Of a stretch of 37,692 nt of DNA, positions 29,116 to 31,968 are shown in pieces (positions within the stretch are counted from its first letter, which is position 1; every line of letters begins with the position of its first letter). The DNA is from a virus (taxonomy: Duplodnaviria > Heunggongvirae > Uroviricota > Caudoviricetes), in the IMG/VR virus record IMGVR_UViG_2645727775_000019, positions 1 through 37,692 of that record. One strand, given 5' to 3'. Made by a program: the position numbers and the translations under genes. The notes beneath the pieces were generated by a model. That model did no database searches. It had not been told where the DNA came from and was given only the letters and a program-made list of their open reading frames with translations.

Positions 29116-30057
29116 TCACCCCCTGAATCCTGCCGGGATCTGGCTGTAGTCCACATTGTCGTAACTGGCTTTGAAGTACGGGTCTTCACGTTTTTCTGTG
29201 TGCGTGCTGACGGACGGCGATAAGCGCAGGGAAAGCTCATCCCATTTTTCCCGCAACTTCGACGGGCTGAGCACGTTACGGCACCAGAACGGATCGCGGC
29301 TGACGCGGCTGTACATCTCGCAGATTTGTTTGTGAGTACGACCATCCTGCACACACATCAGGCGAATTTCGTTTGCCCAGGCTGTCCAGTTAGGTTCTTT
29401 GGGACGAACCACCTCGCCGTCACATTCGGCGGCCTGCTCGTACAGGGCGATGATTTTTTTCCAGAGCCACTGTGCGCAGGTCAAATCATCCTGCGTTCCC
29501 CACTGGCGCTTTTTAGGGCTGAATACAACCGCATCAGGATGGCGAGTTAAAAAATCCTGTTCATCCATCTGCGTGTCCGGTTGCGAAGCGTCCGGACGAG
29601 AAGGTTTTTTATCTGATGGATCATGTTTTGATTTTACTGACGGATCCCCGCCAGATTCTGACGGGTGAAAACCCGCTTTTTTGCCAGATTTCGACGCATC
29701 AAATTTTGACGGGTCAGATTTTGATGCGTCAGATTTTGACGGGTCAGAATCTGACAGTTGAGAAAATGCCGCTGCCTGAAGCTTCGCAACGTTAAGCTGA
29801 TAAACATTCGACGCATTGCGGTTACCCTGGCGACGCGCCTTACGCGTTAACCAGCCTTCTGCTTCCAGCCGTGCGATAGCCGTTCTGACGGTACTCATCC
29901 CCGCGCCAATCTGGCGGGCAATGGTTTCAATTGATGGCCAGCACACACCTTCGTCATTACTGAAATCAGCCAGGCGGGCCATAATTGCCACGCTGGATAA
30001 TTTCATGCCTGACGCTGCGCAACCATCCCATACATAGCCGGTTAATTTAGTGCTCAT
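29116..30057 (-). CDS. Replication initiator (lambda O-like, HTH N-terminal domain), origin embedded in gene
   Basis: 313 aa; N-terminal HTH replication-protein domain; central linker encoded by tandem DNA repeats (iterons). Confidence 0.7.
   Translation of the reverse strand: MSTKLTGYVWDGCAASGMKLSSVAIMARLADFSNDEGVCWPSIETIARQIGAGMSTVRTAIARLEAEGWLTRKARRQGNRNASNVYQLNVAKLQAAAFSQLSDSDPSKSDASKSDPSKFDASKSGKKAGFHPSESGGDPSVKSKHDPSDKKPSRPDASQPDTQMDEQDFLTRHPDAVVFSPKKRQWGTQDDLTCAQWLWKKIIALYEQAAECDGEVVRPKEPNWTAWANEIRLMCVQDGRTHKQICEMYSRVSRDPFWCRNVLSPSKLREKWDELSLRLSPSVSTHTEKREDPYFKASYDNVDYSQIPAGFRG
29653..29760. repeat. Iteron array (putative ori) inside the O-like gene
   Basis: Three perfect and at least two degenerate ~15-bp tandem units ATTTTGAC(G/A)(G/C)GTCAG, each with internal TGAC/GTCA symmetry; AT-rich stretch adjacent at ~29600-29645. 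Confidence 0.6.
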
Positions 30058-30226
30058 GACCGACCTCTATTTCCCTGAATTTACGACGAAACTGTTCGAG
30101 CGGACTGAAGCATTCATGCTCATAGCCTTCGCGGAGGTAGATAACCCGTTGTGTTTCCGGTTCCCAACGAATGACTCTGACGGGCACTCCGTAGTGATCT
30201 TTGAACCAGCGGTTAACTTGTCGCAA
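30047..30226 (-). CDS. Candidate DUF4222-like small protein (59 aa) in alternative frame, TTG start
   Basis: AGGAG 8 nt upstream of TTG; translation [59 protein letters not shown]; overlaps ORF 30067..30405. Confidence 0.4.
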
Positions 30227-30405
30227 AGGACTGTCTCCTTCTGCCGGTTGAAATCACCCACAGCCCACTCTGCAAAGCTGTGGGTTACAATTTCCCTGTC
30301 ACCTGGTACATTCACTGCATAGCAATATTCCACCTTCGCTTTTCCACCCGGAACAGGAAGCGCAATCAGTTGCGAGCGACGGTAGTGTGTTGTTAAACTG
30401 TTCAT
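30067..30405 (-). CDS. Hypothetical protein (ORF A); 3' portion probably not genuine coding
   Basis: ATG directly after the CII-like stop; first ~55 aa look protein-like, the remainder overlaps the alternative-frame small gene. Confidence 0.35.
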
Positions 30406-30971
30406 GCGTTAGTTTCTCCACAACCAGAAGCAATCGACGCCACGACGCCCGGAGCTGCACACTCGCGGGCGTCATTACTTTCTGAAATGCAAAAAATTTT
30501 GTAGACAAGTGCTGCATGCTCCTGCAGCTTCGAAATTGAGAGATACAGCTCGTCGTTAATTGCTGTCTTCTCATGCGGTTCCACCACACCGTCTTCGATT
30601 GCTGAACGAATCTGTTTTGAATAACTGCCGATCTGTTCAATGACTTCCAGCAGACGCTGGTTAATATCGGCGTTGTCCACATCCTCGACGTCAGGAAGAG
30701 ACACAAAGACGCCATTTGCAGACTGCGCCACAGCATCAGCAATGAAGTGAGTGCCACCAGCACGCTGTAAAACCATTGCCCATCCCAGCGGGAAAATCTG
30801 ATCGCCATCTGCACGAAGGCGGTTGAATAAAGCGTTTTCTGTTACATCGAGCCAGTCAGCCGCTTCAGCGTAACCACCCGGCAACGCCGCGATAGTTTTT
30901 CTGACAGCTTTCACGTACCACTCAGGCTGTTTTTCTATTTTCCAGTGATGCTTACCCACGATTAGCCTCAT
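30402..30971 (-). CDS. CII-like phage regulatory protein
   Basis: 189 aa immediately downstream of cro; resemblance to phage CII/CP76-type regulators. Confidence 0.55.
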
Positions 30972-31002
30972 CGTTCTGTGGTTAAAAATTGAAAGTGTTC
31001 TG

Positions 31003-31203
31003 CTAATCTTTCGGATAGATATCCGGTCTTAAGTCAGATTTCGTAATTGCACCTGACGTGCATTGCTCAAGTTTTTTAGCCAGCACAAAACTGGCTTTTT
31101 TATAGCCATTGAAAACCAGCCGTAAGTAGCCAGGTGTTGAGCCAACTTTTCCGGCCAACTCGCCCTGCTGTTCTTTGGTTAAAGAGTCCCAATACGCTTT
31201 CAT
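31003..31203 (-). CDS. cro: Cro-like HTH repressor
   Basis: 66 aa from MKAYWDSLTKEQQGELAGKVG; divergent from cI across operator region; longer ORF-track version would run into cI. Confidence 0.75.
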   Translation of the reverse strand: MKAYWDSLTKEQQGELAGKVGSTPGYLRLVFNGYKKASFVLAKKLEQCTSGAITKSDLRPDIYPKD

Positions 31204-31293
31204 ACAATATGTACCTCCTGTGTACATATTACATGATTGAAATGAACCTTCAAGATACTTGTACCTTAACGGTACAAGGGTTTTAATTTCGTT
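31204..31293. promoter_or_regulatory. OR-like operator/promoter region between cro and cI
   Basis: Perfect palindromes ATATGTAC-N7-GTACATAT (31207-31229) and CTTGTACC-N5-GGTACAAG (31258-31278), both of form TGTAC-N7-GTACA. Confidence 0.6.
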
Positions 31294-31968
31294 ATGAAAA
31301 CAATCCATGACATCCGGCGGTCTAACGCCAGAAAACTGAGAGATGGTGTTGGCGGGAATTCTTCCTTTGCCACTATGATTGATCGCGAGCCAACCCAGAC
31401 CAGCAGGTTTATGGGAGATGGTGCTACTAAAAATATCGGTGACAGCATGGCACGACACATCGAAAAATGTTTCGACCTACCTGTCGGATGGCTCGATCAA
31501 GAACACCAGACAACGAACATCACAAAAAAACCTGATGTTTCAATCACTAATAAACAAATCACATTAGTCCCTGTCATATCATGGGTACAGGCCGGAGCAT
31601 GGAAAGAAGTTGGATATTCTGAGGTTGATTTGAGCACAGCAGAAACGTATCCCTGCCCTGTACCCTGTGGGGAAATGACTTATATCTTGCGGGTGATAGG
31701 TGATTCAATGATTGATGAGTACCGCCCGGGAGACATGATTTTTGTCGATCCTGAAGTACCTGCCTGCCACGGTGACGACGTTATTGCATTGATGCACGAT
31801 ACAGGTGAAACCACCTTCAAAAGGTTAATAGAAGATGGGACACAGCGTTATCTCAAAGCGTTAAACCCAAACTGGCCTGAGCCTTACATTAAGATCAACG
31901 GTAATTGCTCTATAATTGGTACAGTGATTTTCTCAGGAAAACCAAGAAGATACAAAATCAAAGCCTAA
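31294..31968 (+). CDS. cI: CI-like repressor (HTH plus S24 autopeptidase domain)
   Basis: 224 aa; C-terminal GDSM Ser and FKRL Lys dyad intact. Confidence 0.85.
   Translation: MKTIHDIRRSNARKLRDGVGGNSSFATMIDREPTQTSRFMGDGATKNIGDSMARHIEKCFDLPVGWLDQEHQTTNITKKPDVSITNKQITLVPVISWVQAGAWKEVGYSEVDLSTAETYPCPVPCGEMTYILRVIGDSMIDEYRPGDMIFVDPEVPACHGDDVIALMHDTGETTFKRLIEDGTQRYLKALNPNWPEPYIKINGNCSIIGTVIFSGKPRRYKIKA

Follow-up and report, generated by a model that had tools for sequence, protein, structure and literature searches.

A DUF4222 gene and ymfM overlap in an e14-like prophage: evidence that both frames are maintained and that the tail of ymfM is kept free of stops

We describe here the ymfL-ymfM-O region of an e14-like lambdoid prophage, at positions 30047-30405 on the minus strand of a 37,692-nucleotide (nt) stretch of viral DNA (IMG/VR record IMGVR_UViG_2645727775_000019; hereafter the window). 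In this region ymfM (sfiC), an open reading frame (ORF) of 112 codons, is overlapped by an ORF of 59 codons that encodes a protein of the DUF4222 family and lies in the -1 frame relative to ymfM; the tail of ymfM is, correspondingly, the +1 frame of DUF4222. The reading that we consider very probable is that these are two overlapping genes on the same strand sharing 160 nt, an older DUF4222 gene and ymfM, with the tail of the latter kept open as a relay for ribosomes, the relay itself being a part of the reading that we hold more tentatively and weigh separately. Both ORFs are intact in all 57 unique sequences of the e14 group and in all 20 distant sequences, and selection across the overlap takes a different form in each frame: the DUF4222 frame is under purifying selection on its amino acids, and the ymfM frame is marked by avoidance of stop codons and a fixed stop, with no amino-acid constraint. 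A first-pass annotation, made from the letters of the window, had picked out both ORFs together with an AGGAG site and a TTG start for the smaller one, and had proposed either two overlapping genes or one gene with a frameshift. All of these elements are indeed at the positions it gave, on the minus strand, and the first of its two options is the one favored by the small gene's own start and Shine-Dalgarno element, by the existence of the two modules as separate genes elsewhere and by the selection seen on both frames.

The same annotation had remarked that the 59-aa product resembles DUF4222-type proteins, and a profile search bears this out: the product matches Pfam DUF4222 (PF13973) from end to end (67.3 bits against a 27-bit cut-off, E=8.6e-19), with residues 2-53 aligned to positions 3-52 of the 53 in the profile. 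It also matches PHROG 1343 (E=2e-34) and is identical to RefSeq WP_001250269.1. The family residues D10, G13, V16/V18, R32, Y35, H37, C39, P42, F46 and F50, whose columns show either no variation or conservation of at least 90% across 74 diverse members, are all found in the window protein, and with 59 aa and its own start this protein fits a family whose members are 53-70 aa long and in most cases begin with ATG.

Sequences for comparison were gathered without regard to the ymfM frame, via DUF4222-encoding DNA, from one genome per species (28 loci), annotated phages and IMG/VR. A first IMG/VR scan returned near-identical e14 copies only, useful for the polymorphism count but not for divergence, which came from a second scan that started from distant members. 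Over the 28 species (Escherichia, Citrobacter, Enterobacter, Kluyvera, Klebsiella and others) DUF4222 is 70-98% identical in amino acids. Pairwise differences in the overlap number 2309, 1512 and 5801 at the first, second and third positions of DUF4222 codons, and the same differences read in the ymfM frame peak at the second position, with 6551 nonsynonymous versus 807 synonymous codon differences. Each of the three differences between the window and E. coli K-12 in the overlap is synonymous in DUF4222 and alters the YmfM tail, and among 25 E. coli haplotypes 14 of the 15 polymorphic sites are likewise synonymous in DUF4222 and nonsynonymous in the tail. The first-pass annotation had named conservation of the long frame through synonymous substitutions, and not of the alternative frame, as the pattern that would speak against its small gene; the pattern in the relatives is the opposite, the DUF4222 frame changing synonymously and the long frame changing its amino acids. 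These comparisons indicate that DUF4222 is maintained as a protein by purifying selection and that it is the older, sequence-constrained gene of the pair.

How, then, is the ymfM frame maintained across DUF4222? It is stop-free in all 57 unique sequences of the e14 group, including 24 of 24 representatives with pairwise identities below 92% (median nucleotide identity 72%), and a ymfM-like frame is also open in 20 of 20 distant DUF4222 genes that are preceded by a homolog of the N-terminal module of YmfM (hereafter the N-module). Synonymous recoding of DUF4222 leaves this frame open in 6% of cases under the codon usage of the window, or in 29% under the genes' own usage, which as a null is already biased. 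The codons at risk can be defined precisely: where a Val, Leu or Ile codon precedes a codon beginning with A, an ending in A or G would give TAA or TGA in the ymfM frame. Such codons end in A or G in none of 86 cases in the e14 group, in which T and C endings are both used, and in none of 41 cases in the distant subfamilies preceded by an N-module (0/127 with the e14 group). The corresponding figures are 40/110 for Val, Leu and Ile codons before C- or T-initial codons, 289/596 for Val, Leu and Ile codons before A-initial codons in the other genes of the window, and 59/83 for the at-risk contexts of stand-alone DUF4222 genes. The latter genes also carry one to five stops in the +1 frame by one count and one to four by another (two to four in those of Serratia type, where KilA-N takes the place of a ymfM-like ORF upstream). 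Across DUF4222, neither the +2 frame nor any of the three antisense frames is open. The stops and the A and G endings in stand-alone DUF4222 genes thus tie the open frame to the overlap and not to DUF4222 sequence as such, and the counts together argue that the ymfM frame is kept stop-free by selection and that ymfM is not dispensable.

The identity of ymfM itself is clear, since the 112-aa ORF is identical at 110 of 113 positions (stop included) to MG1655 b1148 (NP_415666.1, 'cell division inhibitor YmfM') and is matched over its full length by PHROG 1170; all three differences from K-12 fall in the tail. Its orthology is supported by context, as it is flanked by ymfL and the O-like gene in the order ymfK-ymfT-ymfL-ymfM-O, as in e14. 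Conservation of ymfM at the protein level is confined to codons 1 to about 58, and the differences among relatives there are enriched at the third codon position. The N-module occurs in several divergent types with the motif MNSLT...PQL/F.R.LPV.GG...Y.Y...G...NH.F..WAVGD, and many homologs of it have no tail and are free-standing proteins of 59-73 aa, those in diverged lineages being of 59-68 aa. AlphaFold2 models residues 10-66 with moderate confidence (predicted local distance difference test score, pLDDT, 63-80) and predicts residues 68-112 to be disordered (pLDDT<50). We found no structural or sequence relative of known function; the very long repeat proteins (Listeria-Bacteroides repeats, DUF7507) returned by an exhaustive search with the N-module were judged to be spurious sums of weak repeat matches.

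In the tail, of about 52 aa, we detected no amino-acid constraint: the four-fold degenerate sites of DUF4222 use all four bases, and the tail residue opposite them switches among chemically unrelated amino acids. The first-pass annotation had called the second half of the 112-aa product non-proteinaceous, which holds in so far as residues 68-112 are predicted to be disordered and are unconserved, but not for the frame, which is conserved as open. The best reading of these comparisons is that the tail of ymfM was overprinted on the older DUF4222 gene.

The place at which the tail stops is likewise fixed. Isoleucine 53 of DUF4222 is encoded by the rare codon ATA in 13 of the 13 sequences that have isoleucine there, and with the next base this codon forms the ymfM stop, whose column is shared by 19 of 21 representatives. 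If the next gene is O-like, as in the e14 type, the stop is three codons 5' of, and in frame with, the inferred ATG of that gene. In the window the distance is 9 nt (three codons) and the TAG overlaps the GAGG Shine-Dalgarno sequence of O (30067-30064). The ATG of the O-like gene sits between the ymfM stop and the DUF4222 stop, and the latter is 8 nt past it. DUF4222 thereby overlaps the O-like gene by 11 nt, an overlap that the first-pass annotation had seen. At the other end of ymfM, its ATG and the TGA stop of ymfL share an ATGA.

From this arrangement we propose that DUF4222 would be translated from its own AGGAG-N8-TTG inside ymfM, and that ribosomes would pass from ymfL into ymfM by coupling at the ATGA, be carried in the ymfM frame over the weakly initiated DUF4222 gene and be released at the Shine-Dalgarno sequence and ATG of the replication gene, where termination-reinitiation coupling could follow. 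Initiation of DUF4222 is taken to be weak in view of its TTG or GTG start in several lineages and its long Shine-Dalgarno spacing in others. The result would be a chain of translational coupling from ymfL through ymfM to the replication gene, and the tail would be kept open for being translated and not for its peptide. The lack of amino-acid constraint, together with a fixed stop beside the Shine-Dalgarno sequence and ATG of the next gene, points this way, and so do two arrangements in other phages. In one clade (L169/L172/L184, three sublineages that are 81-85% identical) the N-module is a 69-aa gene ending in ...GGA TGA, and the tail frame begins anew at the ATG that overlaps this TGA (as ATGA) and is open over DUF4222 to just past the O ATG. 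In phages of the mEp460/ST64B/SfV type the ymfM-like frame has no stop at all and runs into an Ash-Rha regulator, as an ORF of 382-383 aa. That the +1 frame is a relay, taking ribosomes past DUF4222 to the replication gene or, in the mEp460 type, straight into the next gene, is a possibility that we advance tentatively.

Several points weigh against this reading or the counts beneath it. The tail ORF of some subfamilies runs 8-80 nt beyond the downstream ATG instead of ending before it; the DUF4222 stop also abuts the O start, and coupling to O could run via DUF4222 alone; and a sequence-independent role of a disordered tail, as a degradation handle or a spacer, would also explain stop avoidance in the absence of amino-acid constraint. 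The stand-alone DUF4222 gene of phage YeP2 is, like the overlapped genes, without +1 stops, and the loci compared are related by descent, which means that the counts are not independent trials. Our search of the literature found no ribosome-profiling or proteomic report on translation of either ORF.

The third of these points is an explanation in its own right and the chief competitor of the relay, one to which we give appreciable weight while thinking it rather unlikely: the overlap would be as described, but the tail would be selected within the YmfM protein, as a protease handle for stability, such as other division inhibitors have, or as a spacer, instead of as a relay. Such a role would suit a tail that is predicted to be disordered and is unconstrained in sequence yet is never truncated, and the fusion of the same frame to a real protein, Ash-Rha, in mEp460-type phages is in keeping with it. 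It does not sit well, however, with the L169/L172/L184 clade, in which the tail ORF is detached from the N-module and is still open and ATGA-coupled, nor with the single fixed end column beside the next ATG, which a tail tolerant of length would not need, nor with the many N-module homologs that are tailless.

Further details of the two arrangements above, and a third arrangement, are as follows. At 1287-1672 of locus L172 (also in L169, L171, L184, L198 and L205) three frames are used at one junction, with DUF4222 starting just upstream of the stop of the N-module and the start of the tail ORF. In mEp460 (L115, 1052-2203), as in L116 (ST64B), L121 and some E. coli prophages, Ash (PF10554) and Rha (PF09669) follow in frame; the whole ORF is annotated by the Prokaryotic Genome Annotation Pipeline (PGAP) as 'Rha family', and its embedded DUF4222 gene, starting with GTG, is omitted. 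Finally, in a Serratia-type clade (L152, 1376-1762, and L150-L166) there is a different, unrecognised ORF of 128 aa (MAWGKKKAEQ...) with no Pfam or PHROG match. It starts behind a lambda-CII-like gene, crosses DUF4222 in the +1 frame and stops about 80 nt inside O; DUF4222 in that clade is also without +1 stops.

Could DUF4222 be the only real gene across the overlap, with the N-terminal ORF of ymfM being no gene or the tail an unselected accident? This is implicitly the view of PGAP, which annotates DUF4222 but nothing over the first half of ymfM in 22 of 22 sampled records covering the region (30227-30401 in E. coli genomes). DUF4222 is, accordingly, not the hidden gene that the first-pass annotation took it to be, as it is annotated in every sampled E. 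coli genome with the region. The absence of amino-acid conservation and the predicted disorder of the tail would agree with such a view, as would the 6-29% of recodings in which the +1 frame stays open by chance. We nonetheless consider it improbable. Codons that would create a stop are absent from the 127 at-risk contexts and make up 59 of 83 in stand-alone genes, the frame is open in 44 of 44 diverged representatives, and the ymfM stop has a fixed position and arises from a rare ATA codon. Moreover, the N-module is conserved as a protein and is also found free-standing, and expression of the ymfM ORF leads to filamentation.

The second option of the first-pass annotation, a single gene in which a programmed -1 ribosomal frameshift (or a frameshift mutation) joins the N-module to DUF4222, we regard as very improbable. 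The frame relation is the right one, and an element like the Shine-Dalgarno AGGAG near the junction is common to this locus and to programmed frameshifting in dnaX and lambda G/GT; databases also hold rare in-frame fusion proteins of 102-119 aa (P0031, P0053, P0060, P0065). These proteins differ from the wild type, however, by indels of 1-2 nt and are represented by 1-14 member sequences each. In the window the DUF4222 frame is shut off by a TGA ahead of its start and has no X_XXY_YYZ heptamer in the interval from the upstream stop to the start; such heptamers occur there in only two of 25 representatives, a different one in each. A start codon of its own is present for DUF4222 in 25 of 25 representatives and an element like a Shine-Dalgarno sequence in 21 of 25 (GGAG or GGAGG in most), and the modules are separate genes in other phages. 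Unlike dnaX and lambda G/GT, then, the locus has no slippery heptamer, meets an in-frame stop first and has a second frame with its own start that exists independently elsewhere, and programmed frameshifting was rejected on these grounds.

The converse view, that the 112-aa ymfM is the sole gene and the 59-aa ORF has arisen by chance, is the least probable of all: it is implied by the MG1655 reference and most phage records, PhiR49_1 among them, which annotate ymfM alone, and the TTG start of the small ORF is weak, but the end-to-end DUF4222 match, the ATG start in most relatives, the homologs that are independent genes in Serratia/Yersinia phages and in the record named Elizabethkingia phage EKP1, and above all the strong purifying selection in the DUF4222 frame already refute it.

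What might DUF4222 do? An AlphaFold2 model based on the 74-sequence alignment (pLDDT 85.8) gives a five-stranded small barrel with a short helix, and the protein is thus predicted to be a small Tudor/SH3-like beta-barrel. Among its structural likenesses are the C-terminal domains of UvrD and PcrA that bind RNA polymerase, CarD and the KOW domains of Spt5, and the Tudor domains nearest to it in structure have RNA polymerase beta as their partner; at this size and score such a match speaks for the class of fold and for probable binding to a protein, not for a function. Searching Protein Data Bank sequences with the DUF4222 profile gave chance-level matches only (E about 1), NCBIfam and PADLOC returned nothing for DUF4222 or YmfM, and a literature search yielded no paper on the overlap, on WP_001250269 or on a function of DUF4222.

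The most constant feature of DUF4222 is its position, directly 5' of an O-type initiator with its stop overlapping the initiator start, an arrangement found across Enterobacterales phages and seen from E. coli to Serratia/Yersinia phages and the record named Elizabethkingia phage EKP1. The gene in the window is the same as other PF13973 members in its full-length match, its length and its place 5' of an O-type gene. In the e14 group, and in several other subfamilies, an ORF from upstream overprints DUF4222, which is an independent gene in phages BZS1 (Serratia BZS1-type, free-standing), YeP2 and EKP1 and at locus L127. We suggest that it may assist the replication or early-regulatory module by binding a protein, and the constant place gives an uncharacterised family a concrete context.

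Same-strand, out-of-frame overlaps with an internal Shine-Dalgarno sequence and start are known in phages from lambda Rz/Rz1, where one gene is embedded in the +1 frame of the other, and from D/E and A/B of phiX174. As in those pairs, both frames of ymfM/DUF4222 are retained across relatives. Unlike them, the embedded gene is here the older and constrained one, the overlapping part of the outer gene is merely stop-free, and the two products are not known to cooperate. The shared ATGA of ymfL and ymfM and the short spacing from the ymfM stop to the O ATG are likewise features of termination-reinitiation coupling, which in its usual form differs from the present case in that ribosomes in ymfM would have to cross the whole of another gene in a different frame. 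To our knowledge, no case has been described of an ORF kept open over a neighboring gene for coupling. DUF4222 has a RefSeq entry and gene overlaps are familiar in phages; the novelty lies in the evidence for maintenance of both frames, in the 'no stops, no sequence' form of selection on the ymfM tail and in the ambiguity that now attaches to a named E. coli gene. The locus offers a clean natural example of overprinting in which the younger frame is under 'no stops allowed' selection only, and in which stand-alone DUF4222 genes provide a built-in control.

Kil and DicB are other small prophage-encoded inhibitors of cell division. The ambiguity over ymfM arises from the way in which its phenotype was established. 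SfiC, the SOS-inducible division inhibitor of e14, was identified as the product of ymfM by expression of the ORF from pBAD24 and by deletion, expression of the K-12 ORF blocking Z-ring formation and causing filamentation, and ymfM was treated as a simple gene of 112 codons (bioRxiv 10.1101/2020.11.19.390815). The start of DUF4222 and 53 of its 59 codons are within the pBAD24 construct too. Of the earlier library clones, D1-8E comprises ymfL', ymfM and ymfN', and another covers the ymfN-ymfK region; all ymfM clones, and the deletion, take in AGGAG, the TTG start and 53 or more of the 59 codons of DUF4222, and the embedded gene goes unmentioned in these papers. With both ORFs in the constructs, the filamentation could be due to the N-module, to full-length YmfM or to DUF4222, and the SfiC/YmfM phenotype may be mis-assigned, belonging perhaps to the N-module (55-60 aa) alone or even to DUF4222. 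By analogy with Kil and DicB, and given its free-standing existence, the N-module is the likely inhibitor. Mutations that are synonymous in one frame could separate ymfM from DUF4222 in the division phenotype.

There are also consequences for annotation. The records of MG1655 and of phages in GenBank call ymfM and omit DUF4222, PGAP does the reverse, and none of the records examined carries both. With the e14 prophage of E. coli K-12 and its intact relatives the region shares 98.7-99.5% identity, and it is matched in 2684 of 5426 complete E. coli genomes (over at least 80% of the query in 1930 of the 5426). On the present evidence both genes merit annotation, which would concern roughly one third to one half of complete E. 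coli genomes. The features are listed in Table 1.

Table 1. Features of the ymfL-ymfM-O region of the window.
Feature	Position	Strand	Evidence or remarks
ymfL, CII-like regulator	30402..30971	-	Pfam Phage_CP76 E=1.3e-13; NCBIfam YmfL equivalog E=2.7e-50
ymfM (sfiC) ORF, 112 aa	30067..30405	-	ATG 30405-30403, TAG 30069-30067
YmfM N-terminal module, codons 1-59	30229..30405	-	PHROG 20047 E=1e-42
In-frame TGA, DUF4222 frame	30254..30256	-	10 codons 5' of TTG; shuts the frame off from upstream sequence
AGGAG Shine-Dalgarno of DUF4222 gene	30235..30239	-	8 nt 5' of TTG, read from sequence
DUF4222 gene, 59 aa	30047..30226	-	TTG 30226-30224, TAA 30049-30047
Dual-coding stretch, 160 nt	30067..30226	-	DUF4222 codons 1-53 and YmfM tail codons 60-112
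ymfM stop TAG	30067..30069	-	Created by DUF4222 codon 53 ATA (Ile)
O-like replication initiator gene	29116..30057	-	Pfam HTH_36 E=4.3e-11; ATG 30057-30055

Upstream of its start, the DUF4222 frame is open further in some near-identical E. coli copies, by 24 codons in L001 and 9 codons in L007-L009. In L001 a change synonymous in ymfM may have removed the TGA, and an 86-aa 'DUF4222' protein (P0103) annotated in some E. coli genomes may use this longer frame. The Shine-Dalgarno sequence and TTG of DUF4222 are predicted to pair with each other, with borderline support (z=-1.96), and the RNA around the O start is not structured (z=+1.2). Within the coding sequence of the N-module, at 30255-30285 on the minus strand, there is an 11-bp perfect hairpin (ACCCACAGCUU...GGGCUGUGGGU) that lies about 15 nt 5' of the DUF4222 Shine-Dalgarno sequence; in KpF5-like relatives the stem is CUACCA...UGGUAG, with changes on both sides at three pairs (8 sequences), possibly from a single event.

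On the opposite strand, a 90-aa ORF (30050-30322, plus strand) is annotated as a hypothetical protein in phage vB_EcoS-733R5 and is probably spurious, as no antisense frame is open in relatives (0-9 stops). An antisense RNA like oop was also rejected: the search of Rfam gave no known RNA family and only a sub-threshold match to 'mir-5880', which is caused by repeats in the O-like gene, and no sigma-70-like promoter was found within 29800-31400.

Start sites elsewhere in the operon differ between sources, with ORFs in the program-made list exceeding the curated genes in length, the cro-like ymfT (31003-31458, minus strand) being annotated at 201 nt and appearing with 151 aa in the ORF list, and ymfL (30402-30971) being annotated at 558 nt by PGAP versus 570 nt in phage records. 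The counterpart of the O-like gene in phage PhiR49_1 is annotated 'DNA replication protein O'. Inside this gene, at 29685-29748, lie the repeats just mentioned, four to five direct repeats of 15 bp (consensus CAGATTTTGACGGGT) that resemble origin iterons, as in lambda O.

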